From contig JAHDGX010000002.1 in the NCBI GenBank assembly GCA_020631575.1, positions 1 through 51,179 on the forward strand: a stretch of DNA of 51,179 bases, given 5' to 3'. Positions within the stretch are counted from its first letter, which is position 1, and each line of letters begins with the position of its first letter. The translations under genes were made by a program, and so were the position numbers. Under the pieces are notes generated by a model. It searched no databases. It was not told the DNA's origin and saw only the letters and a program-made list of their open reading frames with translations. The stretch is from Candidatus Altimarinota bacterium (GTDB taxonomy: Bacteria > Patescibacteriota > Gracilibacteria > BD1-5 > UBA6164). Of the stretch, positions 1 through 51,179 are shown in pieces.

Positions 1-128
1 CCTGAACCTGTAAAAAGAGTTGTAGGATCGTTTTCAGGAAGAAGTGAAGCAGATGGGACGATAGCATGTCCTTTAGATTCAAAGTATTTAAGATATTTCT
101 CTCGAAGTTGTGCTGAAGTATATTGCAT
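1..128 (-). CDS. alaS: alanine--tRNA ligase, N-terminal fragment (continues beyond the window edge)
   Basis: Minus-strand ATG at 126-128. Translation [43 protein letters not shown] matches the conserved AlaRS N-terminus (F..KGH..V.S.SL.P..DPTLLFT). Confidence 0.85.
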
Positions 129-311
129 AATTTTTATGTATTGAGTATAGGAGTTTTATTATAAAGAAATAGTAGGTATTTCAAGGTATAATTTACATAT
201 ATCTTAATTTATGAAACAATATAAAATTCTGTCAATATATATATATCGTCAAGAGGCTTAAAATATGTTATTTTTAAATAGATATTTTATTTTGCAAGCT
301 CTATAGCAATC

Positions 312-3300
312 ATGAACACGGGTCCTGAAATAGACATGTCACGACTTGAGAATTCTGAAACTGAAGCAAGTATTAGAGACGAAACAAAAGCATTGCTCCA
401 GGAAGCAATGTCTATTGTTGAAATGTCCCAAGGAACTGAAAAAGAAGAGGATTTTAAAAGAGAGTATGCTGAACTTGCTGAAGAATATAATACTCGTTTT
501 GAAGATGGAATTATAGATTCAAGTGACCTTCATGCCCTCAAGCAAGAACTAGCAGAAGTTCAGGAATGAAGAGAAATATCGTTAGTCGAACATTACATGC
601 TTGATCATATAAAAGCAACGAATGAATGAATATTGAGTGGGGATGAAAGTGTATTAGATGAAAATCTTACATGGTATGCTGATGTATTTAGTTCAGATAC
701 TTTATTTAGCCCTGCAAAAATTTGAGCAAGAGCATATATTACTTCAGGTGAATGACTCAGTGATGATAGAATGGTACACTATCATGGTAGAATAACCGAA
801 CTCCAAAATAGTAATGAATCAAAGTATACAAAATTATTTCAACTTTCTCAAATCATCTATGATGTATCAATGGAATGAAACATGTGAGGTGGTATGATGG
901 AATCAGCTCATAATAACGCAACTCGAGAGCTCATTAAACAAGTAATTGGAAACTCTGAGCAAAATTTAGCCGTATGATATACTCAAGAAAGATGATATTA
1001 CACTGTTGAATGATCAAATATTGATACTTCAAATGACATGGAGGTAGGAACATACCTTTGCTCGCTCAATAAATCATGAAAACTTACAAAAGAAAACCTA
1101 CTTACACCTAATGGTCCATTTTCTCCGAATGATCTTTTTGATCTCATAAATAAATTTGAAAGCTGAGTATTTTGAGGTCCAGAAGTTCAAGGACTGTTTA
1201 TATGATATCTTGATGGTTTTGAAGATAACATGAATGCAATTGCAGAAAATTATCTGGCAAATGAACAAAACTGAGCTCACATTATAGCATTTTTAAATGC
1301 CCAAGAAACTTCTGGTAATGATCATCCTCTTGTTAATGAAAATAATATTTGAGATATATTTACTGCCACTGAGGATACTGATATCAGTTCCCTAGAAAAC
1401 GAACAATTACGACAAGTTCTTCTTCAAGAAAGAAGAATGATAGCAGCTCAAGCACTAATAAATGAGATTCTTTGAATATATGAGTGAGGTCCAGAGATTA
1501 GAAATGAACTTACAATGATTATCGAAGGTTCTGCGAGATGAGAACATAGTATGTTCGGTTTTACAAGGGTAAACGAAATAATATCAGAGTATAATGCAAG
1601 TGTATGAGACAATGAAAAACAATTTACTCTCATCGAGTGAGACCTTAAAGATACTATTGATAGAACTATATCATCATTTGATGAGGCTCATATGGCTGCA
1701 CAAAGCTATATGTCTACCCTCACGGAATTAGAAAATATAAAGGCCCAGGGAGAAGAGAAAGCTGAAGAACTTCAATCTTTACAAGCTGAACTCATACAGG
1801 CTGTAAACCAAGTTCCTATCGATCAAGCTAAAGTAGAAGAATTACAGGAACAAGTGCGAGCACTTAGGTTTGCTAGTTTTTATACAGAGATGCAAGCGTC
1901 CCAAGTAGAAGCAGAAGTTGAAGCTCAAAGAAGAAAATCTGAAGAAAGTACACATGAGGTTGAGAGAGTTGTGAGTGAATTTGACAGATACTCTACATTA
2001 TTTCGTAGAGAAAGTATAGATGAGGTATCAAAGTCACAAGAATCATTTAATTTATTAATCTCATCTGTACGTTCATCATCTGATATTACATATCTGTATA
2101 ATAATCATTCTGACTACTTTACCAATGTACATTTATATATGTTACATAAAGATGTTCGTTCTGATTTAGATGTAATTAGATGATTCCCTAATCTTCTAAG
2201 AAAAGAAGACTTACACTCAATAGACTCATGATTCTATCAAGAAAGTGAGCATATCTGATACCTCATTGAAGAAGCAGTTGAACATAGCCAATGAATGGCA
2301 AGCAAAATACAGTTTATACTTCTAAGGAATTACGAAGCAAATAGTGAAGATGTAGCTGCAAGTATTAGTCAAATACAATGGGTGCTTCAATACTCTAATT
2401 TAACAATGCAACAAAAGGAATATGTAAGAAATAATATCCCTACTGTGCTTATCAGGGCTGATGAAGAAAATGCACTTCAAATACCAGATAGACCAGAAAG
2501 AATTTCAACAATAAGTCTTGAAGAATTTAGTATACTATCTGTGAAATTAGAAGATTCTCAAACATTGACACTATCTGAGAGAAAGGACTTTGATATATAT
2601 ATTGGTAAGTACGGATTGCATCAAAATAAAAGCTCCGTTATAAATTTTATTTCTCAATGATATTTTGATTGAGCATCTGAAATACAGAGACTTGTAAATA
2701 GTGATTTTATTTCAAAACTAAGTGATAGGCATGAATCATCAGAATATTATCAAGTAGCTCTAAATAGTAACTTAGCAAACATAGTATACTTAAATCAAAG
2801 GTGTAGGAATGATTATTTAAGCCTACAAATAATCATTGAAAAATCCAACAATGAAGAAGAGCTAGTAAAATATTTACAATATACAGAAATTGGGAATGCT
2901 TGAGATTTTATACTGGTATTTAACTGACTAACAAGAAAACTATGATCAGAGGCAGCTGCAAGAAATGTAATCGGAAGTATGCCACGATTTTATAGTTCTA
3001 TCCAATCATTATATGAAAGTGAGTCAACCAACGAAGAAGATAAGCAAACGATGTGAAAGATACTCGAAATATATGCTCTTATAAAAGAGGGGTATATACT
3101 ATGAAGTGAAAATATGGAACGAGCATTAAACCAGTGACATCATGAGAGGCTCGTGATTAGATGATGAGAAAATATTCTATCAGAAATGCTATGAAGAAAT
3201 GTAAATGAGCGTGAAAAAAGTATAATAAAAGGTATATTAACCGTAGACGAGCCTAGTAGTCTAGACCTAAGAAACATCATAAGTATCTTCTGAGAAAGTG

Positions 3301-4433
3301 ATGAATGAGAAGCCCAAGCTAAAGAATTCTTAGAAAGAATAGCTAGTATGAGACTAGACGAAATATTTGCTGAAGTGGATAGGCTCCTTCTGGAGATACA
3401 ACCTGCTGAATCAAATACTGAAGAGTTTAAAAATTATTTTTCGAATGGAGCTCTAGACAGAGATGTATTTATAGCTTCATTAAATCAGTATATAAGTGAT
3501 ACTACTCTAGAAAAAACTGATAATGAAAATCAGAAAGAATATGAGTTAAGGGTCCGAAATGCATTTATAAGTCAATTTTGACTTTCTCAAGAACAAGCTA
3601 AAAATATTTCAAGAATATTAGAGTTAGAAAGTAATGCGGTTAACTGGAGTATACTTTTATCAAATAGTGAAACAGCAGCTCGTTGAGAAAGAGTTGATTA
3701 TCAAGCTGAACGTAGTAAGCGTCGAAGTAATGGAACTCTATATTTAACTCCATGAGAAAGAGGGTGAAGTGAAAGATTTAACTATGAAACCTGAGAATTA
3801 GAGCCAAACCCCAACTACCAACCACCTGAGGCTCCAGAAAACGATAACTCTCAAACTCCTCTACCAACAGAAAATTGATGAGAAACACCAATTTCAAATA
3901 ATTTTGAATATAGACTCTCATGAAGTAGAGATAATCCTGTAATTGAAAGCTGAGATAGTGTTATACCTATTTCTGAGCAGGAAGCTGAGCTTATCGAAAG
4001 TAATCCTGAAGCCGCAAAAAACATTATAAATATGTATGAATTCTTTAAAGATCTTAATTTACTTTGAGTCTGGGAATACAGAGAAGAGCTTGTCACAGCT
4101 GTATGAGAAGTGAGTATAAACCTAGAGGATGATTCTCTGAGAGAAGATGAACTACTACGTTTTGGGAGAAAAATACTTATTTTGGTACAAAATGTAGAAC
4201 AAGATCAAGCACAAACAGAGTGAAGAGAAGCAAATACAATAAATACTGAGGTATCAAGCCTTGATTCTCTTAATTACCAATTATCAAGATTTAGTGGATC
4301 AAGAGAACTTTGGTGAGACGATCGATCATTCAATACCTACTGAGAAGATAGGTTTGAATCTTGGATGAGAAGTTATTGAATCATTTGAGGTATTACATTT
4401 CACACCAATAGAGTCAGAGAAATGATGAAATAA
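312..4433 (+). CDS. giant acidic hypothetical protein, 1373 aa under code 25
   Basis: Track ORFs at 312, 1692, 2295 and 3348 share one phase. I walked the frame from ATG 312 to TAA 4431-4433 and saw only TGA interruptions, no TAA/TAG. Glu/Leu-rich with coiled-coil-like stretches (AEELQSLQAELIQAV). No signal peptide, TM segment or motif I recognise. Confidence 0.75.
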
Positions 4434-8234: not shown

Positions 8235-9416
8235 ATGAAAGCAATTATCTTAGCATCTGGAGAATGATCGAGGCTCAGGCCATTAACTGACACAACTCCA
8301 AAACCATTGATTAAAATTCTTGGGAAAAGTATCATTGAGTATAACCTCGAGCTGCTCAGGGATTTTGTAGATGAGTGCATAATTATAGTACGTTATAAAT
8401 CTGAACAATTTGAGGAGCTCATTTGAGATGAATATATGGGAATGAAAGTATCTTACCACAAACAGTGAGAAAAGACTGGTACTGCTGCAGCAATAGAAGA
8501 TATAGAAGTTAACACTAATGACAAACTCCTTATCCTCTACTGAGATTCTATATACCCAAAAGGAGATATTAAAAATATCATTCTCTCACATGAATATGGT
8601 TGTCTTGTAAAAGAGGTTCAGAATCCCGAAGCGTATGGGATATTTGAGCAGAAAGATTGACTCGCTACAAGAGTCATCGAGAAACCAACACAAGACGTAT
8701 GAAACCTAGCAAATATGGGATGATTCTTCGTTTCCTGAGAGCTTATAGAACTCTGTAAGTGAGTAGAGCCTTCACAAAGATGAGAATACGAAATCACTGA
8801 TGCTATCAATACATATGTAATGAAGTATCCATTTAGACTTCATAAGCTTACGGGAGAAATACTTGATATTTGATATCCATGGAATCTTTTAGATGCAAAT
8901 AATATCTTTCTTTCAGATATAGAGGAAAGCGATATAAAGTGAAGTATTGAAGAAAATGTACATATACATGGACACATTATCCTCGAAGAGTGAGCTATCA
9001 TAAAATCAGGAACATATATAGAATGAAACTGTTATTTTGGAAAAAATACTATCATATGACCGAACGCATATGTGAGATGAAACACTTCTCTGTGAGATAA
9101 TTCTAAAATTTGATTCTCTGTTGAGGTCAAAAATAGTTATATCTGAGAAAACACTAAAATATCTCATCTCTCGTATCTCTGAGATAGTATAGTAGGAAAT
9201 AATGTGAACCTTGGTTGTGGATTCAAAGTTGCGAACCTCAGACATGATGGGAAAAATATGCGTACAATGGTAAAATGAGAACTCATAGATACAGGAAAGA
9301 GAAAACTAGGGTGTATTGTATGAGATAACACTATGGCTGGTATCAACACGCAGGTATATCCAGGTAGAGTTCTCAGTACATGAACAGCTACCATTCCATG
9401 AGAAACAGTAAAATAA
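8235..9416 (+). CDS. sugar-1-phosphate nucleotidyltransferase with C-terminal left-handed beta-helix (GlmU / archaeal-type), 393 aa
   Basis: N-terminus MKAIILASGEGSRLRPLTDTTPKPL is the GxGxRLxPLT nucleotidyltransferase signature; its second Gly is encoded by TGA 8265-8267. The C-terminal half has hexapeptide-like repeats (IGENTKISHLSYLGDSIVGNNVNLG). Confidence 0.85.
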
Positions 9417-9799: not shown

Positions 9800-9875
9800 T
9801 GGAGCCACTAATGGGACTTGAACCCATGACCTCTCCCTTACCATGGGAACGCTCTACCAGCTGAGCTATAGTGGC
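9800..9875 (-). tRNA. tRNA-Thr (anticodon GGU), CCA encoded
   Basis: Reverse complement is GCCACTA TA GCTC AGCTGGTA GAGC G TTCCC ATGGTAA GGGAG AGGTC ATGGG TTCAAGT CCCAT TAGTGGC TCCA. It folds as a perfect 7-bp acceptor stem, a 5-bp T stem with a TTCAAGT loop, and anticodon loop A-T-GGT-A-A. Confidence 0.9.
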
Positions 9876-9928: not shown

Positions 9929-10201
9929 TTATACTACTGATACATATGTATCCTTATATACTCTTCCATCAAATCTTTTTCTTTTCTTTTCAAAGAATTT
10001 TACTGTTCCTTCTTTTTCAGCGTAGAGAGTAAAATCAGAACCTTGTCCTACTCCTTCTGCTGGCCAATATTTGTTTCCTTTTTGTCTTAAGATGATTCCT
10101 CCAGCTGTAACTGGTTGTTCTCCAAAGACTTTTACTCATAAACGTTTGGCATTACTATCACGACCATTATTCGTGGATCATTGAGCTTTCTTGTGAGCCA
10201 T
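9929..10201 (-). CDS. rpmA: 50S ribosomal protein L27, 90 aa
   Basis: Translation MAHKKAQ[G]STNNGRDSNAKRL[G]VKVFGEQPVTAGGIILRQKGNKYWPAEGVG. Both bracketed Gly are TGA and align with the invariant KKAGGS and KRLGVK positions. Confidence 0.95.
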
Positions 10202-10237: not shown

Positions 10238-10678
10238 CTATCTATTAGCAAATCTTGCGAAAGCTTTGTTTGCTTCAGCCATCTTATAAACATCTAGTTT
10301 CTTTTTAAATGCATTCCCTGATTCATTTGCAGCTTCAATAAGTTCAGCAGCAAGAAATTTTGAGAAATCAGCACCTTTTTTACTTCTTGCTGAAGCGATA
10401 ATCCATTTAGCAGCAAGAAATAGTTGTCTTTTAGGTTTTACCTCAGAAGGAACTTGAAATACAGATCCTCCGACTCTTTTCGCACGAACCTCAATTCGTG
10501 GCATAATGTTTTCAAGAGCTTTGAAAAAGATTCCTTCAGGATTTTTTTGTCCTTTTGCTTTAATCTCTTCAAATGTATCTTGCATAATTCTCTTAGCAAG
10601 AGCTTTTTTACCATCAAGCATAACATAGTTCGTAAATTTTACGATCATGTCAGCATTATTTTTTTCTGGTAGTGCCAT
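10238..10678 (-). CDS. rpsG: 30S ribosomal protein S7, 146 aa
   Basis: Intact ORF in the track. Motifs: KFTNYVMLDGKK, PRIEVRAKRVGGSVFQVP, KKKLDVYKMAEANKAFA. Confidence 0.95.
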   Translation of the reverse strand: MALPEKNNADMIVKFTNYVMLDGKKALAKRIMQDTFEEIKAKGQKNPEGIFFKALENIMPRIEVRAKRVGGSVFQVPSEVKPKRQLFLAAKWIIASARSKKGADFSKFLAAELIEAANESGNAFKKKLDVYKMAEANKAFARFANR

Positions 10679-10836
10679 AGTTATAATGCAATAAGCAAGT
10701 AAAATAATTTATGATAGGACATATTTTCAGTTATTGCCAAACTTACTCCTCATCATAAAAGTTTCATAGATATACTATGAAGCAAAGAGTGATGAAATCC
10801 TATACATTTCATCATCCTCGTGCCTCACAATATATA
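10679..10836 (-). promoter_or_regulatory. structured 158-nt rpsL-rpsG intercistronic spacer (possible S7 feedback site)
   Basis: Two stem-loops on the sense strand: gatgaaat-gtatagg-atttcatc and ttcatag-tatat-ctatgaa. No ORF is present. In E. coli, S7 represses translation by binding the S12-S7 intercistronic RNA. Confidence 0.3.
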
Positions 10837-11259
10837 CTAGTTTTTTGGTTTTTTCGCTCCGTAGAGTGATCTTCCTTGTTTTCTATCTTTTACTCCTTCA
10901 CAGTCGAGTACTCATCTTACTACGTGGTATTTTACCCCAGGTAAATCTTTTACCCTCCCTCCTCTAATAGCAACTACAGAGTGCTCTTGAAGATTATGTC
11001 CTTCACCACCAATATAAGCATTTACTTCGTATCCGTTAGTAAGTCTTACTTTTGCTACTTTACGTAGGGCAGAGTTAGGTTTTTTAGGAGTCATAGTTGT
11101 AACTTTTGTACAAACACCTCTTTTCATAGAACATCCTTTAGGAAGTTCAACGATTTTCCCTTTTTTAATTGAATTCTTAATAACCTGAAGTGCAGGAGAT
11201 TTAGATTTTTTTACTTTATTTTTTCTCGGTTTTTTTACGAGTTGACTAATAGTAGGCAT
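10837..11259 (-). CDS. rpsL: 30S ribosomal protein S12, 140 aa
   Basis: The track ORF stops at TGA 10912-10914. Read-through gives KYHVVR[G][24 protein letters not shown], matching the invariant YHxVRGxLD motif. The true stop is TAG at 10837-10839. Confidence 0.97.
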
Positions 11260-11286
11260 TTTTTAAGTAATTGATAAATAAAAATA

Positions 11287-11679
11287 TTAACGTTTTGACC
11301 AAGATGGAGATTTTCTCGCTTTCTTGAGTCCTGGTTTCTTTCTTTCAACTTTTCTTGCATCTCTTGTAAGATGTCCAGCTGCTTTAAGAACGGTTCTGTT
11401 TCCAGGATCTTTTTCTGCAAGTGCTCTTGATAATCCGTGAGCAATAGCAGCAGCTTGAGAGCTTTCACCTGATCATTGTACTTCTACTGTAAAGTAGGTT
11501 TTATCATCAAGTTTGCAAAGTTTTAGTGGAGCGAAGATAGTTTCAAAAAGATCCTTTCTTGCTACGTATTCTCCAAGAGGACGACCGTTAATAGTAGAGT
11601 CACCTTTCCCTTCAAATAGTTTTACTTGAGCCGAAGCTGTTTTCTTTTTCCCAAGTGAATATGTATAGGTTTGAGCCAT
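11287..11679 (-). CDS. rpsI: 30S ribosomal protein S9, 130 aa
   Basis: The track fragment continues through TGA into [G][18 protein letters not shown]...[27 protein letters not shown], the typical S9 C-terminus. Confidence 0.95.
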
Positions 11680-11694
11680 GGTAAAAGTTATAAA

Positions 11695-12126
11695 TTATAT
11701 TGTTAGTGTTTCTGGTTTTTGAGCAGCAAATGTATGCTCCGTTCCTGTAAAAAGTTTTAGTCTTTTCATCATATCTGCTCTGAGTTTATTCTTTGGAAGC
11801 ATCCCGCTTACCGCAGCTTCAAGAGCTCTTGTTGGTTTTTTTACAAGAAGTTTCTCAAGAGGAGTTGAGATAAGCCCTCCAAGGTACCCTGTATGTCTAT
11901 GGTACATTTTATCAGTCATTTTGTTTCCACTTACTGCAAACTTATCTGCGTTAATAACAATGACATTATCACCGTTATCCATGTGTGAAGCAAAATCAAC
12001 TTTATTCTTTCCTCTAAGAGTCGTAGCAATAACTGTAGAGAGACGACCAAGAGTTTGCCCCTGAGCATCTATTACATACCACTTTCTCTCAGTATGAGCG
12101 AGTTGTTTTGGTGTTATAGTTTTCAT
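11695..12126 (-). CDS. rplM: 50S ribosomal protein L13, 143 aa
   Basis: Intact ORF. Motifs: RKWYVIDAQGQTLGRLST and MYHRHTGYLGGL. Confidence 0.95.
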   Translation of the reverse strand: MKTITPKQLAHTERKWYVIDAQGQTLGRLSTVIATTLRGKNKVDFASHMDNGDNVIVINADKFAVSGNKMTDKMYHRHTGYLGGLISTPLEKLLVKKPTRALEAAVSGMLPKNKLRADMMKRLKLFTGTEHTFAAQKPETLTI

Positions 12127-12155
12127 ATTCCTGAAATTTCTAGTAAATTAATATA

Positions 12156-12518
12156 TTATTTAAGACTGATTGATACAAGTTTTGCATTATCACCATCTCT
12201 ATACTTGATTGGTACAATCTTTGTAAAACCAGAAGTTTTTACTCCTTTATATTTTGGTGCAACATTTTTAAAAAGTTCTTTAGAAGACTCTTCTGTGAAA
12301 AGATATTGCATTACATATCTGATAGCGTTCATCTCATCTTTCGTATTCGCTACATTAATAAGTTTATCAATCATAGGAACAATAGATTTAGCTTTCTTCT
12401 CAGTTGTTTGCATGCTTTTATGCATAAAGAATGATGTAAGAAGATTTCTTTGCATCGCTTTTCTATGTTGAAAGCTTTTTTTGTTAAATTTGAGATGTTT
12501 TCTGACTTTATGTCTCAT
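12156..12518 (-). CDS. rplQ: 50S ribosomal protein L17, 120 aa
   Basis: Intact ORF. MRHKVRKHLKFNKKSFQHRKAMQRNL is the L17 N-terminal signature. Confidence 0.9.
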   Translation of the reverse strand: MRHKVRKHLKFNKKSFQHRKAMQRNLLTSFFMHKSMQTTEKKAKSIVPMIDKLINVANTKDEMNAIRYVMQYLFTEESSKELFKNVAPKYKGVKTSGFTKIVPIKYRDGDNAKLVSISLK

Positions 12519-12555
12519 AACTCTATATTAATTAGTAATAGTTTTTTAAATATTT

Positions 12556-13536
12556 TTAGTCGTCTCCAAGAAGTTTTAATCCTCTTTCATTGAGAGATGC
12601 TCTAATTTCTGTCATTGCTTTCTTACCGAAACCTTTGATAGAAGATAGTTTTGTTTCTGTACACTTTGTAAGTTGTTCTATAGAAAGGATATTTCCATTT
12701 ATAAGAGCGTTGAGAGTTCTTGGCGAGAGTCCCATAATCTCTATTGGAGTATAACTTTCTTTTTCTAGTTCTTCTTTTACTTCTTCTTTTTCTCTATCGA
12801 GAAGATCTTTAATATCTCCTATAAATTCTCCTTCTACTTGTAGCGCTTCTTCATTTATAAGACTAAAGTAAGAAGTAAGCATATCACCAGAAAATTTAAA
12901 CACCTCTGTTGGAGTGAGTACTCCATTTGTTGTGATTTGCATTTCTACTTCGTCTAAGTTTGTAATATCTCAAACTCTTGAAGAATGGATGTCATATTTC
13001 ACTGAAACTACTGGAGAGAAGTTTGCATCTATAAGAAGTACATTTACATCTTCTTCTCTTTCTTTGAGATCCTCACTACTCATGTACCCAACTCCTTTTT
13101 CTACTCTAATTTCGATTTCTAGTTCGAGTTTATCTTGATCAATTTCTGTAATATACATGTCAGGATTCATGATTTTGATATCTGAAGGAACTGTGATATC
13201 AGCTGCTGTAACCTTTCCTGCTTTTTTCTTAGAAAGACTCACCCATTGGATTCATACGTCTTTCTTATCAATAACAAGACCTTTGAGGTTTAACATTATG
13301 TCTACAATTGAATCTTTTACTCATGGAAGTGTAGAGTACTCGTGAGAAACTCCTTTTACTTTAATACCTGTAACTTTTGTTCCTGGTATAGATGAGAGAG
13401 CTACTCTTCTCATAGAATTAGCAAGAGTAATACCGTATCCTCTTGGAAGAGGGGACATAGTAAATACAGCTGAATTATCTCCTGTAGGATTTTGAGTTAT
13501 TTTTGGAACACCAATTGTGTTGTGAAGGATGTGCAT
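12556..13536 (-). CDS. rpoA: DNA-directed RNA polymerase subunit alpha, 326 aa
   Basis: Three same-phase fragments are joined by TGA. N-terminal domain shows [21 protein letters not shown]-terminal domain shows [20 protein letters not shown]. Confidence 0.95.
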
Positions 13537-13586
13537 ATTTTTTTATTTGAAAATGTAATATAAGAAACTGCCGGCAATTGCAATTA

Positions 13587-14210
13587 CTACTTAGAGTAGA
13601 ATTCTACGATTTTCTGAATATCGATTACTTGTTCAAAGTCTTCTTTTTCTGGAAGAGCTGTAACAGTAATTTTTAGGTTTTTTACATCAACCTCTATCCA
13701 TTTAGCGCTAGAGATTTTACCTTTTGATTCTTTAGCAAATTCTTCAAGTTCTTCGAGAAGAGATTTATAAAGTGGAGACTCTTTAAGTTTTGGTCTGAGT
13801 TCAATAACATCTCCAACTTTAAGAGAAATAGAAGGTATAGAAACCTTTACTCCATTTAGATTAAAGTGAGCATGACCAACAAATTGTCTTGATTGCATTC
13901 TTGTTCTTGCAAATCCTGATCTGTATACAACATTATCAAGTCTGAGTTCAAGAAGTTTTAACATTTTTTCTCATGTAGTACCTGCAGCTCCAGATTTTTG
14001 AGCTTTTGTAAAGTATGAGAAAAATTGTTTTTCACTGAGTCCAAACATTCTTTTCGCAAGTTGTTTTTTTCTGAGCTGTGTTCCAAACTCTGAAGTTTTT
14101 CTACTTCGTAGAACACTTCTTTTTCCTTTTTCTAGATCATACTTTTCTGTTCCGAAAAGGTTGATTCCTTCTCTTCTACAGAGTTTTTTCTTAGGTCCAG
14201 TATAACGCAT
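13587..14210 (-). CDS. rpsD: 30S ribosomal protein S4, 207 aa
   Basis: Two same-phase fragments are joined by TGA. Motifs: MRYTGPKKKLCRREG and LELRLDNVVYRSGFARTRMQSRQFVGHAHF. Confidence 0.95.
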
Positions 14211-14267
14211 TTTTTCTTAATTTTAAGATACAAAAATAGAATTTTTTAGCTAATTCACAGAGAGAAA

Positions 14268-14645
14268 TTACATTCTTCTCACTTTTTTCTTTCTACAACC
14301 ATTGTGTGGAACAGGAGTTACATCAAAGATTGATCTGAGTTCAATTCCTCCTGAGAGAAGACCTCTGATTGCTTGTTCTCTTCCAACACCAATACCTTTT
14401 ATGTACACATCAACTGTTTCTAAACCATGAAGTGTTTTTGCTTTTTCAACTGCTTGTTCTGCTGTAATTTGAGCTGCATATGGAGTAGATTCTCTTGCCC
14501 CTTTAAATCCTGCAGATCACCCACTTGCCCAAGAGAGAACATTTCCATCCTCATCAGTAATACTTACAATAGTATTGTTGAATGAAGCGAGGATGTGAGC
14601 ATGTCCAATCTGAACAACTCGCTTTGTCTTTTTGCTTTTAGCCAT
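14268..14645 (-). CDS. rpsK: 30S ribosomal protein S11, 125 aa
   Basis: Missing from the track because of an internal TGA. Translation is [42 protein letters not shown][G][15 protein letters not shown]...[17 protein letters not shown]. Confidence 0.93.
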
Positions 14646-14672
14646 AATTTCTAAATATAAATATGATATAAA

Positions 14673-15041
14673 CTATTTTTTCTTCCCAGCAATAGCAACT
14701 GATTTCCCTTTTCTTGTTCTGGCATTTGTTTTTGTATTTTGCCCACGAACTGGAAGTCTCTTTTGATGTCTTATACCTCTGTAACATCTAATTTCTTGAA
14801 GTCTTTTTATGTTTCCACTTACAAGTCTTCTTAGATCACCTTCTACAATATATCCTTTAATAACGTCACGAATAAGATCGAGTTCTGTTTCTGAAAGATC
14901 ATCAATTTTTCTTGTTCTCTCAATTTTCACTTCGTCGAGAATAAGTTGAGCTGTTGTTTTCCCAATACCATATATGTATGTGAGAGCAATTTCAGCATGT
15001 TTTCCACTTGGAAGTATTACACCAGCAATTCTAGCAGCCAT
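14673..15041 (-). CDS. rpsM: 30S ribosomal protein S13, 122 aa
   Basis: Intact ORF. Motifs: [11 protein letters not shown] and [29 protein letters not shown]. Confidence 0.95.
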
Positions 15042-15069
15042 AATGCAGTAAATAAATAGTTAAATAAAA

Positions 15070-15198
15070 TTATCCTTGTCTTTGTTTATGCTTTGGATCA
15101 GTTGCGCAGATTACTCTTACACATCTTTTTCCTTTAAATCTTCGTGTCACTACTTTACAGTTTTGACAGATTTTTTTTGCAGAAGTTCTTACTTTCAT
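15070..15198 (-). CDS. rpmJ: 50S ribosomal protein L36, 42 aa
   Basis: Translation [42 protein letters not shown] shows the L36 zinc-ribbon pattern and the C-terminal KHKQRQG. Confidence 0.9.
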
Positions 15199-15970: not shown

Positions 15971-15989
15971 ATTACTTTTCAATTACTAC

Positions 15990-18344
15990 TTTATACACTT
16001 CCAGAGTATCTTTCATTTCAATATCTGTTACTCAAACAAGTTTGATACCACACTCTTTTACCTCTTCGATCTTATTCACTTCTTCAACTCACTGTTTGAG
16101 GGACTCTATTTTTCACTTTCCAATGACCTTATCTCATCTGATAACTCTTACAAGAGCGTTGTTTTCAATAGTCTGATCTTCTGCTGCAACCTGCAGTCCT
16201 ACAATCATGAACTTTTTAGAAGTAAAGAAGATTCCTCCTACTCTTGCTTCACATAGTGGTACTTCTACCTCTTTCGGGTCAAGCATCCCTGTCACTATTT
16301 TTTCTATCTTTTCTGTAATATGATAGATGATCTTGCTTTCTATATATTCTACTCCTGAATCTTCTAGAGCCGATTTTGCGTTTGGCCCAACTGAAACACC
16401 AAATCATACAAGAACTGCTGAGCTTCCTCCACACATAAGTACATCACCTTCTGTAACATTTCCGACCCCAGAGTGAATAATCGTTACAGAAGTTTCATCT
16501 GTTGAGAGTTTCAAGAGAGCATTCTTTATTGCTTCAAGACTCCCGTTTGTATCAGCCTTGAGAACAACTTTAAGATGTTTCAAATTTCCTGATTTAATCT
16601 TAGACATGAGAATATCCAACTGTGATGATTTGAGTTGTTTCTGGTTTGAGAGGTACTCAGCATATTCTGCAGCTTTTACCCTTGCAGCATCGACACTATT
16701 CATAACTTGAAGTATGTCTCATCCTCATACAACTTTATCAAGCCCCACAATAAGTGCTGGCTGTCCTGGAGTTACAAATTTTACAGATTTTCCTGTATAG
16801 TCTTTGAGTACTTTGATTTTTCCATATGAATTTCCACATACTACAGAAGCACCTTTTTCTATTGTTCCTGTATTCACAAGAACTGTTGCAACAGGCCCAA
16901 GTTTTGTGTCTAAGTGTGATTCTATAATAGTAGCAACACCATTTCTATCTGGATTTGCAGTGAGAGCTTGCATTTCTGCCATGAGGAGAATAATCTCTAA
17001 TAATTCCTCTATACCAAAACCGGTGTGAGCAGAAACAGGAACCATAGGAGTCTCTCCACCCCAGTCTTCAGGAGTGAGTCCGTGTTCTGCAAGTTTTCCT
17101 TTTACATGATCTGGATTTGCTCCTTCTTTATCCATTTTATTAATAGCAACTACCACTGGAATACCTGCTTCTTTCGCGTGTGAGATTGATTCTATAGTTT
17201 GAGGTTTTACTCATTCATCAGCAGCTACTACAAGAATAGCAATATCCGTAGATTTAGCCCCTCTCGAACGCATGATGGTAAATGCCTCATGACCCGGAGT
17301 GTCGAGAAATGTAATCTTCTTTCAATTATGCTCAGCTTGATACGCACCAATACTTTGAGTTATTCCCCCAGCTTCTCCAGCAGCTACTTGTTCTTTTCTA
17401 ATATGATCAAGAAGTGAAGTCTTCCCATGATCAACATGCCCCATGATAGAAACAACAGGAGCTCTCTCCACAAGTTTTGAGCTATCATCCTCCACAAGTA
17501 AATCTTTTATATTCCCAGTAGCTATTTCGCTTGCTGCAATACCATCTGAAGTGTCTCTTTGAAGTTTCACTTCAAAAGCCTCAGCAATGAGTGAAGCAGT
17601 GTCAAAATCTATTTGTGAATTAATGGTCATCATCATACCATTTTTCATAAACTCAGCTATAAGTTTTGGAAGAGGAGTTCCTATTTTTTCAGAAAACTCT
17701 TTGAGTGACAAAAACTCTCAGACTACAACTGTTTCACCAGTCTTTGCAGTAAGGTTTTGTTCTATGTCCTCTATATTTTTTTCTTCTTTCTTCTTATGTT
17801 TTATCTTATTAGATCTCGTAAAACCATCGTCTTCATAGTTATTTTTATACTTACCTTTTTTTCCTCCTGAGAAAAACTTACCTTTTTTTCCTCCATCTCT
17901 TTCAGCGTTTGGAGTAAAACTCTTTCCTGGCTTCGGAGCATTTTTTGTAAAGCCTGGTTTGAATTTTGGTGCAGATGGAGTAGATGCCTCTGATGGCTTT
18001 GCTTCACTTGATGAACGAAAGCTAGATTCTTGATGAGCATTCTTATTCCCAAGAGAATCATCTGCTCTACGAACAACTGTAAATCATGATTTTTTCGGAA
18101 CGCTCGTATCAAGAGTATCATTGAGTGTTGTTTCTGAATTCTGAGTTTGAGACTCTATAGTCTTTTCTCCATCAGCATCTGCTTGCTCTAAAGTCTGCTC
18201 AGACTTAAGTTCTACTTTTTTTATTACTGGCTTTTTAGCCCGCACTATAATTTTTTTCTTTATTACTGGCTTTTTCTTATCAGAAGAACTACCATCACTA
18301 GAGGATGATATATTTGCGTAATAATCGTCAACGTTTGCTACCAT
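15990..18344 (-). CDS. infB: translation initiation factor IF-2, 784 aa as written; the 3' end appears frameshifted
   Basis: Fragments ending at 18344, 17711, 17156 and 16703 share one phase. G-domain: [14 protein letters not shown] walked the C-terminal domain codon by codon to ECGIKLVGVTDI. As written the frame ends [14 protein letters not shown] at 15990-15992. The conserved ending [18 protein letters not shown] (15971-15973) lies in the +1 phase. Confidence 0.9.
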
Positions 18345-33797: not shown

Positions 33798-34129
33798 AAT
33801 TTTTTATCAAAGAGGTAACGAATTTCATTTTGAATTTTATCCAAATTTTCTGGGAGTCATGTAAGCTTTGTTTGTTTTTTCACGACACATACTACATCTC
33901 AGTAATGCTTATGAATATAGGGCTGTGATACATCATAAAATAACCTTCTGTATGAATTTCTTACTACATTTGTTGGAACTGATTTCCCACCTATAACAAT
34001 AGCAAAACGACTATATCAGAGTTTATTAGGAAACACATTAAAAACAATACTATAAGAAAAAAAAGGTTTTCCTTTATGCAAAACCTTTTTTACTTCACGT
34101 TCCTTTAGCCTGTATTTTTTTGCAAGCAT
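33782..34129 (-). CDS. rnpA: ribonuclease P protein component, 115 aa
   Basis: Translation begins MLAKKYRLKEREVKKVLHKGKPFFSYSIVFNVFPNKL[G]YSRFAIVI[G]GKSVPTNVVRNSYRRL. Its 3' end overlaps the yidC start by 16 nt, and it sits in the rpmH-rnpA-yidC order. Confidence 0.8.
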
Positions 34130-34141
34130 GAAAATGATTTT

Positions 34142-34384
34142 TTATTTTCTTTTTACGTAATTCCCTTTCCCATCAAAAGGAGATTTTTTAGCAGTACCAC
34201 CAGCGATGATATGCATTTTAGATTTCCCGTTAATTTCTTGGTATCTTTTTGGATAACTTACAGTAAGTGCGTGTCTCCCTTTTCTTCTTCTGTTTTTCAG
34301 TACTTTTCTTCCTGAAGCAGTTGAGCTTCTCTTTAGGAATCCATGTACTCTCAGTCTCTTTCTTTTCTTAAGTTTTCAAAGCAT
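34142..34384 (-). CDS. rpmH: 50S ribosomal protein L34 with a C-terminal extension of about 37 aa, 80 aa total
   Basis: The sequence ML[G][39 protein letters not shown] is canonical L34. The frame then stays open through [38 protein letters not shown] to TAA 34142-34144. Confidence 0.8.
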
Positions 34385-34465: not shown

Positions 34466-36526
34466 TTATTGCCAAAATCACTCACACCCTTCTCTAGAAT
34501 TTGAAAATGGTCAATTAAGCCCAATAAATCCTGTCGTTATTGGTGTGTCATTCACAACACCAGAAGAAATGTCATTTCACCATGACGTAATGCTTCCATC
34601 TGGTTTTAATGCATGGTAACTTCATTTCGCAGAATAAATATTAATATATCCTGTATCAGTCGGTTCTCAAAGTCCTCCCATTGTATCACTTCACCAAGAT
34701 GCAATACTTCCATCTGCTTTCATTGCTGCGAATCAATGTTCTTGGGCATAAAACTTAACATATCAGTTATCAGTTGGCTCTCAGTCAGCCTGAGTTCACC
34801 ATGATGAAATAGAACCATCAGCTTTTACTGCCATCATTCCTCAATACGTAGAAAGTGCTTTTACATACCCTCCATCTGTAGGAGCATCATCTCGTAATGT
34901 AGCATTTGCTGAATATATCCATAGGGTTCCATCTGCTCGAATTCCAATAAATCAGAAAAAACCTCATATAAGATCTACGAATGTATCTGTTGGAAACTCA
35001 TCTCAGTAATAATACAGCTGTCACCATATATGAATAGTTCCATCATCTCTTAGAGCTCAAAAGGTATTCCCCGTACCTACTACCTTAGTAAATCATGATC
35101 CATATGAGGTAACGAAATTTCCATTTGGATCTAATATTCTTCCTCCATAAGTCGTGTTTCCCCATACATGAATACTCCCATCAGATTTTAAGGCTCAAAA
35201 GGCTCATCTAAAATTTGAAAATATTTCTACATATCAACTATCCGTAGGAGTGTTCAAATTCCCCCATCATGTATCTCACCACGACACAACTCTACCATCA
35301 GAATTAAGAGCCGTAAAGGCTCTTGCTGTTGCTACTACAGAAGTATAGCCACTATCTGTAGGTCCTCATACTCATCATCTTGCTGGGTCTCACCAGGTAG
35401 TAATAGATCCATCTGACTTCAGAGCTGCAAACGCTCACTGTGTTCATGAAACAGTAATATAACCATTATCTGTTGGGGCTCCTGTGACCTCATTATCCCC
35501 ATCTGATCACCATACTGTCATGGATCCATCTGGCTTAAGAGCAACAAAGTTTGCATATATTGTAAAAAGTTGAACATACCCGTTATCGCTAGGGGCTCCT
35601 ACTCCTCCATAAGTATCACTTCCCCATGATTCTATACTTCCATCTGTTTTTAACCCTGCTAGGGCTCTACTATTTCCATATGCATTATTTGCTGCAGATT
35701 CTATTGTATAATACGCATTTGAATCACCACAACTATACTGACCTATTGTTAAAGGTAGACTTGGTAGTGTAGGTCAATTATTTTGTATCCCTCATGGACA
35801 TCTCCCATCCTTATTTACATCGAAACACTGAAAAGCGTTATCTACCACTCTCCATCATTTTCATTTTCTCACTATAAGATCTCATAACTCAGAAAATGTA
35901 GCTCAAGTTCCCGTAACGTAATCTTCTCATGATAAATAAGAGGAGAGAACATAAGTATTTCCTATATCTGTAAGCTCAAGAGTATTTGAAGTAAACGCTA
36001 AATCTTCAAGTGGTAGATTTGTAGCTTGCTGGGTCATAATACCTAAAGATGTCCCAAATGTCCGAGGATACCTATCTTGATTATCTGAATGTACTGAAGG
36101 AAGCAGAGCTAGGCTACTCATTTCTTCTTCCATGAATGCCATAAACTGAAAGGTTTTTTTATTAGATCATAAAAAATAACTATAGTACGTATCATCTTTC
36201 GGGTCCTTAGTATTTTCATCCATTCATATAGTTTCTAGTACATCTTTTCCTATTTTTCCCTGAAATCATACGATTACTCAACTTGAAGTGATAGTAATAC
36301 TGTTATCTGGGAGAGGAAGTTTCTTTGAAGTTGCATATTGTTGAAAGGTTTCAACTGCCTTAGTGAGAGTTGCTATTCTTTTTGTATCCCTCGCTCACAC
36401 AAGATATCAGGTATAAGAAACAAAACCAATTGTTGAGATAATTCCAACAATTGTGATAACAACGATAAGCTCTACAAGTGTAAAAGCTCATTTTTTAGAA
36501 CCGTGAAAACGAAGAATATTATGCAT
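34466..36526 (-). CDS. type IV prepilin-like N-terminus fused to about 10 RCC1-like beta-propeller repeats, 686 aa
   Basis: The N-terminus MHNILRFHGSKK[G]AFTLVELIVVITIVGIIS is a class III (prepilin) signal. The C-terminal 450 aa carry about 10 repeats of the form ALK.DGSI..WG...GG.....P.D.GY. The start, track fragment 36142 and stop TAA 34466-34468 are all in phase. Confidence 0.8.
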
Positions 36527-36616: not shown

Positions 36617-37309
36617 TTATACTATCTTTGTTCCAAGCCCAGAACCCATAAGTAAATCAATAATATTTTGAGTATCTCACAATTTTGTAACAAAAATCGG
36701 CAGATTATTATCCCTTGCCATGATAATCGCTGTCTGATCTAATACTTTTAAGTTTTGAGAGATAAAGTCGTTGTAGTGTAATGTATCATATCTTTGAGCA
36801 TCCGGATGTACTTTCGGATCGCTATCATATACTCCATCCACTTGCGTGAGTTTGATCATCACGTCACAGTGAAGCTCTAAGGCCCTGAGTACCCCTGTAG
36901 TATCTGTTGTAAAAAATGGAGTTCCTCAACCTGAGCTTGCAATGACTATTTTATCTTCTTCTATGTAATTTCTTGCCCTCATTGCAGAATATTTTTCTAA
37001 AAACTCAACATGTAGCGCATCCATAACTACAGCCTGTATACTAAGCTTTGCAAGAAAATTTTTGAGCGTCACGGCATTAAAGACCGTAGAAAGCATACTC
37101 ATATTATGAGAATCTGCCGCATCTACTCATGATGCAATAAGCTTTGATCCTCTATAAATATTTCCTCCACCTAATACGATAACAAGCTCGTATCACTGAG
37201 CTTTAATATCTTGGATCATTTTCGCAACTGCCTGAGCTTTTTCTGGATGTATAGACTGTCCATCCTGACTCAGTGACTCACCTGAAATTTTTAAAAGTAC
37301 TCTTTTCAT
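36617..37309 (-). CDS. pyrH: UMP kinase, 230 aa
   Basis: Motifs: MKRVLLKISGESL, VIVLGGGNIYRG, ASS[GG]GTPFFTTDTTGVLRALEL and VDGVYDSDP. Confidence 0.92.
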
Positions 37310-38393: not shown

Positions 38394-40397
38394 TTATACT
38401 TCCGTTACGATTGGAATAATCATTGGTTGTCTATCTATTCTCTTGAGAAGAAAATTTTCCATATCTGTTCTAATAATCTTTAAAAGATCCTTTTCCTCCA
38501 TATCTGGAACATCTTTTATAGTATTTTCATATGTTTCTCTCGCTTTTTTGATAATGATTCTATGTATATAGCGAACTTCTTCTACATAAACAAGCCCTCT
38601 TGTTTCAAGCTTCACATGACCAATAATTGCTTTTGATTTTTTATCGACCTTGTACTGCAGTACCATCACTCCAGAGTTCATCATTTGTTCTCTCGCTTGG
38701 AGTACATGTGATCCCATAAGTCCCATACCATTACCATCTACAAGATATTCTTGAAGTGGCACTTTGATCTTTGATCGAAATACTGAGCCATTTGGAGCAA
38801 AATCTATAATATTCCCATTATCGAGAAGGAGAACATTTGATTGCTTTACACCTACTGACATCGCAGTTTCCGCGTGACGAGTTCTGAAGTACAAATCACC
38901 ATATATTGGCATAAAATACTTTGGCTTGAAGAGTCTTACGAAGATCTTTTGTTCTTCTTGATACCCATGACCCGAAGTATGTACTGGCCTGTCAGACTTT
39001 GTAATAATCTTTACTCCATACTTGATAAGTTTATTAATTACAAGACTTACTGATCTCTCATTTCCAGGAACAACAGAGCTTGAAAACACGACCGTATCAC
39101 CAGCTTGAATCGTAATTGATGGATGTTTTCCTTCTGACATTCGAGAAAGAGCAGAGTATTCTTCTCCCTGCGATCCTGTTGTTATGATGATTTGTTTCTC
39201 AGCTGGTACTCCATTTGTGTTTTTTGGAGTGAGCTTTTTAATAGTTCCAGGTTTTGTTTTCACATATCCGAGTTTTTGAGCGATAGCTACATTTTCAGTC
39301 ATAGATCGACCTGAAAGATAGATATATTTATCATATTTTTCTGCTGTATCTACGAGCTGCTGAACTCTTGATATCCAAGAGGAAAATGCTGCAATAATAA
39401 GTCTTCCACCGGTATGCTCTGAAACTATTTTTTCAAGCTCATCACCAACTTCTTTCTCGCTCATCGAAAATCCCTTTGTGGTAGATCCTGTAGAATCAGA
39501 AAGAAGCATAGTAATACCTCTATTTCAAATTTCTTCATACCTCTCAAAATCAGCAGGAGCATCAAGTCTTGGAGTATGGTCAATCTTAAAATCTCACGTA
39601 TGTACAAATTTCGCTCCACCTGGAGTTTCTATGTATAAACCAGCACAATCTGGAATAGAGTGATTTACTGAGAAAAATTCAACATCAAATTGCCCTATTT
39701 TTGTTTTATTTTCTACGGAGGCATCAATCTCTACAAATGTCGCATGTGGCATAAGCCCAGCCTCTGAGATAGCTTTTTTAATAAGTCAAATGGTAAGTTT
39801 AGTACCGTATAAAGTTGGCATATCAAGAACTGGAAGCACATCTTTGAGACATCCAATATGATCCAAATGCGCGTGGGTAATCAAAAACCCTTTAATGTTT
39901 TTTGTATATTTTTTGAGAAATGATACATCAGGCACACTATAATCAGCCCCATACATATCTGGCTCAGCAAACTGTATTCCACAATCAATGAGGATAATAT
40001 CATCTCAGTATTGTACCATAGACATATTTTTTGCCCCTATTTCATTATTTCAACCAATAGGAATATATCTCGTATATCCTTCTCTTAGTGCTGGAAGGAA
40101 AAACTTCGTATCTGGAAAATCTAAAGTTCTTTTTCCATACTTATGAGTTTTCCTATCTGCTGAGGAAGAACTTCACTGTGTCTTTTGTCATGTTTGACGT
40201 CTTGCCTGGTTTTGTCACTGAGACATTTTTGAAGCTCTTTGCGTATCACGAGAAGGTACATGAGCAGATTTTTTCTGCGCTGATGGCTTTTTTGCTTCAT
40301 CTTTTTTTTCTACTTTCGGCTCTGGTTTATGTGATCAAGCCGAAGTAGGGTTAATATCGCGAACCTCCATATCGAGTTCGTCTAAGAAATCTTTCAT
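38394..40397 (-). CDS. rnj: ribonuclease J (metallo-beta-lactamase / beta-CASP), 667 aa, with a basic low-complexity N-terminal extension
   Basis: ATG 40395-40397 is in phase with the 371-aa track fragment. Motifs: LITHAHLDHIG (HxHxDH), FSVNHSIPD, HT[G]DFKID and HTSGHGYQEE. Confidence 0.9.
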
Positions 40398-47480: not shown

Positions 47481-47487
47481 TATTTCT

Positions 47488-49545: not shown

Positions 49546-50305
49546 AAAAATTCTTATCACCTATGCGCTTCCCAAAGAAGGGAAAGTTGCAAAGTCTTTT
49601 TTCGCGAATTATAAAAGTTCTCACCGTTTTGAGTTTCTAGAGCTCGGTATGTGAACACACAACACTCTACTAACACTCACTCAAAAGTTATCTGAGACAA
49701 AATATGATTTTGTGGTGAACTACGGAGTATGTTGATATACAGAGGAAAAAGAAGCTTGTATTCAGATAGCCCGAAGTGTGTATAGCCCGTCAGAAAAAGA
49801 ACTTACTATTCCTTTATTCTTCAAATTCGCTCCTCTCGCTTCATGTTTGTGTAGCGATAGACCAGTATATGATCCAAATACTCTTTGAGACCTCAAATAC
49901 GTTGATATGGAGAGTTATGGAGTAGAAAAGGTCTGTGAGCATTTTCGTATTCCTCGAATAATACTGAAAGTACCAATAGACAAGCTGTGAGAACAAACAC
50001 AGAATTTTGACAGAGAAGCTGCGTGTAAAACTATGGAAGAAAATCTCAATTTTCACGTGCTCACTCAGGGGATTAAAAAATATCTCGATTCTTTACAAGA
50101 GTCTCCAGAACTAGAAAAGTATAAAGATTTTTTCTGATTTACAGTCAGTGAGAATATAATATTTGAAAAATACTACCACGCTTATAGTTCTCTCTCTGAG
50201 AGAGATTTTGATGTATTTTATACTACAAATAAGAATCTCACTAAAGTGAAATTCCTAGAATTTTTGCGAGAAGAAATTAACTCTCTGAGAAATCTCATAT
50301 GATAA
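49529..50305 (+). CDS. nucleoside phosphorylase/nucleosidase-superfamily-like protein, 258 aa
   Basis: GTG start at 49529 or 49535, after the in-frame TAG at 49508. KILITYALPKE...DFVVNYGVC[G]YTEE...YVDMESYGVEKVC resembles the PNP_UDP_1 fold. It overlaps the upstream gene by 17 nt and the downstream gene by 7 nt. Confidence 0.5.
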
Positions 50306-51179
50306 TATATATAGAAAAGAGAGCAAAAAACTATCCCCAAGCTCAAGAAATAATATCTACATTTACGTCATCAGATATCGTAGAAATATCTCACTATAAA
50401 AATGTATTTGATAAAAATACAAGCTGACTGAAGGAGAAAAAAGCTCTTATAGTAGCAAAACTCGAGAGTCCTGCTATTACGGAGGCTCCAGCTTGATACG
50501 GTCATACAAAGCATGCTTATTTCTTTAAGACCTCTCTCAACTGTATTTACGATTGTAGTTACTGTTTTCTCAAATGAGCATTTAAAACTGAACATATGGT
50601 ATGCTTTGTAAACTATGATGATATCAAGTCTCAAATATCCAGACATATTCAAGAGCTTCAAAAAGAAAAACTCTCAGGAGACATCTGGATGTACTCAAGT
50701 GACTATAGTGACATACAGTGAATGGACTGATTTTCAAATTTTAATCAGGAATTTATAGAATTCTTCGAAGGATTTTCTGGAGTCAAAATGGAAATACGTA
50801 CAAAGTCATGAAATATCCAGAGCTTACTCAAGTTATGATATGCCCCGAAAAATACAGAAGTAGCATTTTCGCTTAACCCTCAAGAGCTTATTGATAAATA
50901 TGAAACTGGTACAGCGAGTCTCAAGCAAAGAATAACATCTATAAACACGCTCCTAGAAGCCTGATGGAAGGTAGGAATTCGCTTACTCCCTCTTTTGCCT
51001 GTAAAATGATATCAAAAGGTATATAAAAACTTCTTTTTGCAGCTGTCTCAAGAAATAGATATGAGCGCTATATATTCCAGCTTTGCCTCTGGGCTCTTAT
51101 TTACAAAGCGTGACTACAAAGTTATGCTCAAAAAATACCCTGACCTTGATATTCTGCACTATCTTTCTCTTGAGGAAGA
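50299..51179 (+). CDS. radical SAM protein, spore-photoproduct-lyase-like family (3' end outside the window)
   Basis: SLNCIYDCSYCFLK[G]AF carries the CxxxCxxC cluster in an SPL-like context. The frame is open to the window edge. Confidence 0.6.

Follow-up and report, generated by a model that had tools for sequence, protein, structure and literature searches.

NCBI translation table 25, in which UGA is read as glycine, has been known since 2013; it is recognised by Codetta, by gTranslate and by Prodigal (option -g 25), and public databases hold hundreds of genomes that use it. The glycine identity elements of the tRNA(UCA) are G1:C72, C2:G71, G3:C70 and U73, and for the related reassignment of table 4 the loss of release factor 2 (RF2) is the accepted enabling step. 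The first demonstration of UGA as glycine is said to be that of Campbell et al. in 2013, in the Absconditabacteria (SR1), and in the same year Rinke et al. reportedly described table 25 in Gracilibacteria/BD1-5. The use of this code in Gracilibacteria/BD1-5 has also been reported by Hanke et al. 2014 (PMC4032931) and Sieber et al. 2019 (PMC6851277), and it is for this clade that table 25 was defined and proteomically validated (PMC4032931, PMC8629427); in BD1-5, peptides unique to the Gly reading numbered 97, against 3 for Trp (PMC4032931). The Absconditabacteria form a sister lineage inside the same recoded clade, the GTDB class JAEDAM01 (gTranslate preprint 10.64898/2026.05.24.727570), and for them the reading of CGA/CGG as Trp is predicted additionally (Shulgina & Eddy 2021, PMC8629427).

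The DNA analysed here, called the window, is one stretch of 51,179 nt with a low GC content (33–37%), in which 43 genes were found at a coding density of ~91% when TGA was read as sense. We take it to be a chromosomal fragment of an uncultured member of the Gracilibacteria (BD1-5), in the Candidate Phyla Radiation (CPR). The best matches of its GyrA, with 92% identity, are MAGs of Candidatus Gracilibacteria, the label carried by most of the top matches between 70 and 92% identity. TGA as sense is required at the loci of all 15 nearest relatives (15/15); it is not required in relatives with at most 58% GyrA identity (Peribacteria, Peregrinibacteria and other CPR). Judged by this single marker and by the NCBI labels, the window falls in the recoded clade (BD1-5/Absconditabacterales), probably as a distinct species of the same lineage as its nearest representative (92% in GyrA). 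With the Gracilibacteria/BD1-5 it shares in-frame UGA, aligned to Gly, in almost every gene, stops restricted to UAA and UAG, low GC (~35%), dense gene packing and large repeat-rich surface proteins, and over the 51 kb from which it is known we found no substantial difference. The features referred to below are collected in Table 1. Several giant repeat-rich proteins of the window have no Pfam match.

Table 1. Features of the window, with coordinates, strand and in-frame TGA codons
Feature	Coordinates	Strand	Remarks
1373-aa protein, no Pfam match	312..4433	+	53 TGA, the window maximum; TGA makes up 63% of its Gly codons
gyrA, 852 aa	4456..7014	-	12 in-frame TGA, e.g. 6436-6438
Sugar-phosphate nucleotidyltransferase + hexapeptide-repeat protein	8235..9416	+	24 TGA
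tRNA-Thr(GGU)	9800..9875	-	Sole tRNA in the window (ARAGORN)
rpmA (L27)	9929..10201	-	2 TGA: KKAQ[TGA]S, KRL[TGA]VK
Ribosomal/RNA-polymerase gene cluster	10238..15198	-	Order L36, S13, S11, S4, RpoA, L17, L13, S9, S12, S7
rpsL (S12)	10837..11259	-	TGA 10912-10914 in YHVVR[TGA]VLD; E. coli YHTVRGALD
infB (IF2)	15972..18344	-	11 TGA
Tryptophanyl-tRNA synthetase (class I W/Y family; trpS)	20190..21155	-	9 TGA
1365-aa secreted protein, three DUF11 repeats	22349..26446	-	Repeats of ~157 aa, 471-bp period, 24372-25810
rpmH (L34), rnpA, yidC cluster	32634..34384	-	In-frame TGA 1, 4 and 6, respectively
686-aa protein, N-terminal pilin-type methylation motif + RCC1-like blades	34466..36526	-	43 TGA
pyrH (UMP kinase)	36617..37309	-	4 TGA, 2 on Gly of E. 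coli
RNase J (rnj)	38394..40397	-	9 TGA; full length solely with TGA read-through

It is practically certain, in our judgement, that the window uses translation table 25 with UGA as Gly, as a preliminary description had proposed for its whole length, and all the tests that could be run on the window favour Gly over Trp, stop or selenocysteine. The effect on the open reading frames is seen in their union coverage (ORFs of at least 100 aa), which rises from 39% with TGA as a stop (table 11) to 94% with TGA as sense, while the ORFs of at least 300 aa go from 2 to 26. By the same measure of coverage, control readings through TAG gave 55%, those through TAA 62%, and shuffled sequence 10–20%, so the pattern obtained with TGA as sense is far above the chance expectation. 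In-frame TGA was found in 38 of the 43 genes, which bears out the claim that a standard-code ORF track misses or fragments most of them. The total is ~395 codons, or 25 per 1000, about one third of the glycine codons of the window. No gene ends in TGA, the terminators being TAA in 34 and TAG in 9, and neither of these two triplets occurs in frame inside any of the 43. It had been stated that every conserved gene is interrupted only by TGA; the freedom from internal TAA and TAG holds, but S7, L13, L17, S13 and L36 are without any TGA. UGA is an ordinary glycine codon here, with UAA and UAG as the only terminators.

The identity of the residue was assessed by comparison with nine conserved E. 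coli orthologues, taking BLAST matches only on the strand of the true gene. Among the 36 TGA sites obtained, 20 face Gly and none faces Trp (binomial P = 6e-13), and protein homology persists beyond each TGA. The fraction of codons aligned to a Gly of E. coli was 56% for TGA, 64% for GGA, 79% for GGT and 78% for GGG; the ~40% of TGA sites that face other residues lie in variable columns, where GGA behaves likewise. Both TGA sites of L27 correspond to Gly in E. coli (KKAGGS, KRLGVK), as do 5 of the 11 in infB, for example AADE[TGA]VKPQT against AADDGVMPQT, and in the nucleotidyltransferase the motif G-x-G-x-R-L has its second Gly encoded by the TGA at 8265-8267. When GyrA was aligned with 63 TGA-free relatives that use the standard code, 6 of its 12 TGA columns were invariant Gly (63/63) and 9 were Gly in the majority; pooling all residues in these columns, Gly accounts for 544 of 756 and Trp for 1. 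Conversely, at the 28 invariant-Gly columns of GyrA the window has GGN in 22 and TGA in the other 6. If only GGN is counted, glycine makes up 5.0% of the residues in the proteins of the window; if TGA is counted as well, 7.6%. The eight codons cited in the preliminary description are all real, its quoted peptide contexts are exact and E. coli has Gly at each, although it slipped in places on the strand: TGA belongs to minus-strand genes, and so appears as TCA on the plus strand, at 10912-14 (S12), 6436-38 (GyrA), 24518-20, 24989-91 and 34577-79, it is read on the plus strand at 8265-67, and the GGG at 25460-62 and the GGA at 35159-61 are on the minus strand.

A further line of evidence comes from exchanges of TGA with GGN, both within the window and between it and its relatives. 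In the DUF11 repeats, with codon pairing read from the protein alignment, there are 8 columns with TGA in one copy; in 6 of them the partner in another copy is GGN, and in none is it TGG. A TGA/TGG pairing appeared in the third repeat when a fixed 471-nt register was imposed, and it was discarded as a misalignment, being gone in the protein alignment. The series TGA, TGA, GGG described earlier for one codon of the three 471-bp copies was found again at 24518-20, 24989-91 and 25460-62, the third copy being far more diverged, with indels (2.4 copies at 89% according to TRF). In the RCC1-like blades the W-G dipeptide is written TGG-TGA in 7 and TGG-GGA in 2 (35621-23 and 35159-61); the exchange itself had been correctly described, but the blade count had been given as 8 and 1. 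Finally, an orthologous-codon table was built with 8 independently assembled Gracilibacteria relatives, using true genes only. The partners of the TGA codons of the window (n = 358) were TGA in 163 cases, GGA in 71, GGT in 28 and GGG in 22, and the twelve commonest partners in these 8 relatives do not include TGG. In this lineage, then, UGA and GGN behave as synonymous codons.

Several alternatives to plain table 25 were considered. The one that survives best accepts UGA as Gly and adds a further reassignment, either CGA/CGG to Trp, as in the Absconditabacteria (SR1), or CGG to Trp, as predicted for some Gracilibacteria (PMC8629427). Codon rarity is a precondition for the reassignment of CGA/CGG (PMC8629427), and in the window CGG is indeed rare (9 codons, 5.7 per 10,000) and CGA uncommon (47). 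However, the single CGG of GyrA lies on a column that is Arg in 62 of 63 sequences, and of its five CGA codons two lie on columns that are Arg in 63/63 and none on a Trp column; against E. coli, CGA corresponds to Arg in 5 of 9 cases and CGG once to Arg and once to Gln, with no Trp. We consider this extension very unlikely. In the small sample that the window offers (47 CGA, 9 CGG) there is no sign of it. The window and the Absconditabacteria share UGA as Gly, and they differ in that CGA/CGG fall here on Arg columns and the best-matching genomes are labelled Gracilibacteria. Apart from UGA, every codon open to checking has its standard meaning, CGA/CGG as Arg and UGG as Trp among them.

It is less probable still, to the point of being hardly credible, that the window uses genetic code 4, in which UGA is Trp and which occurs in Mycoplasmatales and several endosymbionts of insects. 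The ORF structure would be identical to that of table 25, and a GC content such as that of the window is typical of code-4 lineages; with table 4 systems (Mycoplasmatales, Hodgkinia, Zinderia, Nasuia, Stammera) the window shares the passage of UGA from stop to sense and a small low-GC genome. The difference lies in the amino acid, Trp there and Gly here, the TGA columns of the window being essentially without Trp (0/36 and 1/756 in the comparisons above). We also scored ten amino-acid substitutions for TGA by the summed Pfam bits of NTP_transferase and Hexapep: Gly gave the highest value (186), Trp the lowest (127.5) and the other eight 133–171. Moreover, the Trp content of the proteins, 0.7% via TGG only, would reach an implausible 3.3%; TGA–TGG pairing is missing from the paralogous repeats, as is TGG from the commonest orthologue partners; and the nearest relatives are Gracilibacteria.

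The standard code 11 can be set aside as having a negligible probability. Under it the TGAs would be real stops, to be accounted for by pseudogenes, sequencing or assembly errors, programmed read-through or selenocysteine; apart from being the default assumption, it has in its favour only that the five short genes without TGA read normally in table 11. Against it stand the ~395 in-frame TGA, as against no in-frame TAA or TAG, in the 43 genes, and the fact that gyrA, infB, rpoA, rpsL and rpsD, all essential and single-copy, would be broken. The TGA positions are, furthermore, kept or swapped with GGN in the eight independently assembled relatives, and they fall on invariant Gly, with homology running on after each one. 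As regards selenocysteine, which would call for only a few UGA, at Cys/Sec sites in selenoprotein families, no TGA faces Cys in either the E. coli orthologues or the GyrA relatives, and the codons are spread over 38 genes at the density given above. Of equally negligible probability is that the window belongs to a phage or other mobile element with stop-codon recoding and not to a cellular chromosome, for although recoded phages exist and the giant repeat-rich proteins lack Pfam matches, genes for 12 ribosomal proteins are present in the window together with rpoA, infA, infB, gyrA, trpS, pyrH, rnpA, yidC and rnj, and there is synteny between the window and chromosomal contigs (up to 325 kb) from MAGs of Gracilibacteria.

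With UGA as glycine, the mechanism may be drawn from what is described in the clade. A dedicated tRNA-Gly, bearing the anticodon UCA and glycine identity elements, would read UGA, and RF2 (prfB), which otherwise terminates at UGA, would have been lost. A search with ARAGORN over the window and the loci of the 15 recoded relatives returned no tRNA with a UCA anticodon, and no release-factor domain was found among the proteins of the window, which represents ~4% of a genome of ~1.3 Mb. In the literature, prfB went undetected in all BD1-5 genomes available in 2019 (PMC6851277), and a tRNA-Gly(UCA) is expected, with RF2 present only in non-recoded 'Gracilibacteria' (PMC8629427).

The table 25 code found here is already known, and its importance in this case is practical and not conceptual. 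Because TGA is glycine, the genes of the window need to be called with table 25: an annotation with table 11 truncates or fragments the 38 genes mentioned, and one with table 4 would place Trp at ~395 glycine positions. The recoding serves also as a taxonomic flag and assigns the fragment, within the Candidate Phyla Radiation, to the BD1-5/Absconditabacterales clade.

The distribution of TGA among genes is uneven. The ribosomal/RNA-polymerase cluster is TGA-poor: counted with L27, IF1 and L34, it has a TGA share of 9% among its Gly codons, whereas the share in the rest of the genes is 36% (Fisher P = 4e-12). It is possible, though we put it forward only tentatively, that UGA is a second-class Gly codon, which is decoded slowly or whose meaning is blurred in part by near-cognate reading or residual termination, and that for this reason it has been purged from highly expressed genes. 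If this were true, the window would capture an ongoing, expression-dependent codon capture and not a finished reassignment. An ordinary codon-usage bias, combined with a stronger retention of ancestral GGN in conserved genes, fits the data equally well. Usage varies also among relatives: the close relative L013 has 2 TGA in gyrA, and its sisters have 12–43. A reversion of L013 to the standard code was considered and rejected, its ORF coverage rising from 66% under table 11 to 99% once TGA counts as sense.

Reading UGA as a sense codon transformed the ORF structure of the window. Taking the union of ORFs of at least 100 aa, coverage rose from 39% in the standard table 11 (longest ORF 376 aa, 2 ORFs of at least 300 aa) to 94% (1383 aa and 26 ORFs). 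The controls with TAG or TAA as sense reached 55% and 62% (longest ORF 376 and 414 aa, 2 ORFs of at least 300 aa in each), and shuffled sequence with TGA as sense gave 10-20% (134-249 aa, none of at least 300 aa); the pattern of in-frame TGA is beyond chance. The gene set called with table 25 comprised 43 genes at a coding density of ~91%, terminated by TAA (34) or TAG (9) exclusively, and 38 of the 43 carried in-frame TGA. There were ~395 TGA codons, that is, 25 per 1000 and one third of the Gly codons. Counting them raised the Gly content from the 5.0% given by GGN to 7.6%, while under TGA = Trp the Trp content would be 3.3%, against 0.7% from TGG only.

The identity of the residue was examined by alignment with nine E. 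coli K-12 orthologues (GyrA, IF2, RpoA, PyrH, S4, S9, S11, S12, and L27). TGA was opposite Gly at 20 of 36 sites (binomial P = 6e-13, background Gly 8.4%) and opposite Trp at none, a Gly match of 56%, within the range of the window's Gly codons GGA (64%), GGT (79%), and GGG (78%). A GyrA scan of species-representative genomes gave 80 loci, and the window was aligned with 63 relatives free of in-frame TGA. Of its 12 TGA columns, six were Gly in 63/63 and nine had a Gly majority; the pooled residues were Gly in 544/756 and Trp in 1/756. At the 28 invariant-Gly columns the window used GGN (22) or TGA (6) and nothing else, and in the per-codon tabulation every codon besides TGA kept its standard meaning. 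When the nucleotidyltransferase, with 24 TGA, was translated ten ways and scored against Pfam, Gly ranked top (NTP_transferase 119.7 bits, Hexapep 66.6 bits) and Trp bottom (95.1 and 32.4 bits). Within the window, the three DUF11 repeat copies had TGA in some copy at 8 columns of the protein alignment, with a GGN partner in 6 and TGG in none. Among eight recoded relatives, the codons orthologous to window TGA were mainly TGA (163), GGA (71), GGT (28), and GGG (22; n = 358). UGA is thus a sense codon meaning Gly, and UAA and UAG terminate. The claim of table 25 in the preliminary description was borne out by ORF structure, both alignments, and Pfam scores; small slips aside, its observation and interpretation were both right.

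Judging by the clade literature, a tRNA-Gly(UCA) would decode UGA, and the genome would have lost release factor 2. The expected tRNA and its identity elements were described by Shulgina & Eddy (PMC8629427), who also noted that 'Gracilibacteria' lacking it have RF2 and are not recoded; in BD1-5 genomes prfA was found and prfB in none (Sieber et al., PMC6851277). Proteomics validated Gly in BD1-5, with 97 unique peptides for the Gly translation versus 3 for Trp (Hanke et al., PMC4032931). The only tRNA gene in the 51-kb window was tRNA-Thr(GGU), and the tRNA search detected no tRNA(UCA) there or in the loci of 15 recoded relatives. CGA and CGG are also predicted to be Trp in Absconditabacteria, and CGG in some Gracilibacteria (PMC8629427), whereas in the window, where both are rare (47 and 9 codons), they fell at Arg columns of GyrA: the CGG column was 62/63 Arg and two CGA codons lay at 63/63 Arg columns. 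Against E. coli, CGA was opposite Arg at 5 of 9 sites and Trp at none. Within the limits of this small sample, the code is plain table 25.

The sole mildly unexpected finding was the uneven use of TGA. In the ribosomal-protein, RpoA, and IF1 genes (9929-15485 and 34142-34384) TGA made up 13/142 Gly codons (9%), against 383/1061 (36%) in all other genes, a fourfold depletion (Fisher P = 4e-12); highly expressed genes strongly avoid TGA. Every conserved gene had been described as interrupted by TGA, which does not hold for S7, L13, L17, S13, and L36, with none. In some poorly conserved proteins TGA exceeded 60% of Gly codons. A Gracilibacteria relative at 81% GyrA identity (L013, JAMIGJ010000014.1, GC 36.5%) had 2 in-frame TGA in gyrA (10001-12499) versus 12-43 in its sisters, so TGA usage varies widely within the clade; that locus still required TGA as sense (coverage 66% in table 11, 99% otherwise).

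The top GyrA matches, at 92% identity, were the Candidatus Gracilibacteria MAGs JAJOLH010000046 and JAHDCR010000001, and close relatives kept the order gyrA, nucleotidyltransferase, L27, S7, S12 ... IF2. TGA as sense was required in 15/15 nearest loci (coverage 9-66% in table 11 versus at least 85%), and relatives with GyrA identity of 58% or less (Peribacteria, Peregrinibacteria, other CPR) were normal in table 11. The gene content is cellular, with 12 ribosomal protein genes, rpoA, infA, infB, trpS, pyrH, rnj, rnpA, and yidC. The translation cluster has an unusual order, with L27 and not fusA-tufA after S12-S7, common to four of the relatives (L007, L008, L011, and L013). Knowledge of the recoding goes back to 2013; it has its own NCBI table, standard tools cope with it, and table-25 genomes number hundreds (gTranslate preprint, 10.64898/2026.05.24.727570); in practice, annotation of the window must use table 25.

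All coordinates cited in the preliminary description proved correct. It had left the strand unstated; the plus strand reads TCA at most of these sites because most genes are on the minus strand. The RCC1-like blades were reported as eight TGG-TGA and one TGG-GGA; both forms occur, as seven and two. The codons of the 471-bp repeats were as described, the third copy being strongly diverged.

Coordinates of codons, genes, and repeats in the window
Feature	Position	Strand	Description
Acidic protein, 1373 aa	312-4433	plus	No Pfam match; 53 TGA, window maximum
GyrA TGA	6436-38	minus	NLLMS[TGA], then 10 protein letters not shown
Nucleotidyltransferase TGA	8265-67	plus	Inside G-x-G-x-R-L motif
Translation cluster	9800-18344	minus	IF2, cNMP-binding protein, IF1, L36, S13, S11, S4, RpoA, L17, L13, S9, S12, S7, L27, tRNA-Thr
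L27	9929-10201	minus	KKAQ[TGA]S and KRL[TGA]VK; E. coli KKAGGS and KRLGVK
S12 TGA	10912-14	minus	YHVVR[TGA]VLD
Paralogous repeat codons	24518-20, 24989-91, 25460-62	minus	TGA, TGA, GGG
Protein, 1286 aa	27808-31668	minus	Alanine-rich; no Pfam match
15-bp repeat in 1286-aa protein	27907-28059		Ten copies, encoding (TGTEG)n
126-bp tandem repeats in 1286-aa protein	29756-30084, 30526-30803		Two near-perfect sets, 100% and 99% identity
Secreted protein, 227 aa	31852-32535	minus	C-terminal LPETG, hydrophobic stretch, basic tail (…PPRLPETGAEHLLLAFVALMLGFGFLKFRNR)
Protein, 686 aa	34466-36526	minus	~Ten RCC1-like beta-propeller blades; 43 TGA
RCC1-like blade codons	34577-79, 35159-61	minus	TGA, GGA
Putative zinc metallopeptidase	40632-41540		Peptidase_Mx1; adjoins T4SS_pilin pair
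Two adjoining small membrane proteins	41550-42355	minus	T4SS_pilin match (PF18895, TrbC/VirB2-like)
Glycosyltransferase block	43218-51179	plus	GT4-family glycosyltransferase, Wzy_C/O-antigen-ligase-like protein, PMT_2-family glycosyltransferase

At its N terminus the 686-aa protein has KK[TGA]AFTLVELIVV, a type IV pilin-like motif for prokaryotic N-methylation, and it looks like a pilin-anchored propeller. By analogy with the hypervariable surface protein of a closed BD1-5 genome (PMC6851277), the 1286-aa protein may be of that kind. The end of the 227-aa protein, in which no Pfam domain was found, reads as a classical sortase sorting signal. Homologues of the 1373-aa protein in close relatives were 23-39% identical beside an adjoining GyrA at >90%, and it is therefore evolving very fast. 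The glycosyltransferase block likely serves cell-envelope glycosylation; after it comes a spore-photoproduct-lyase-like radical SAM gene extending beyond the window end.
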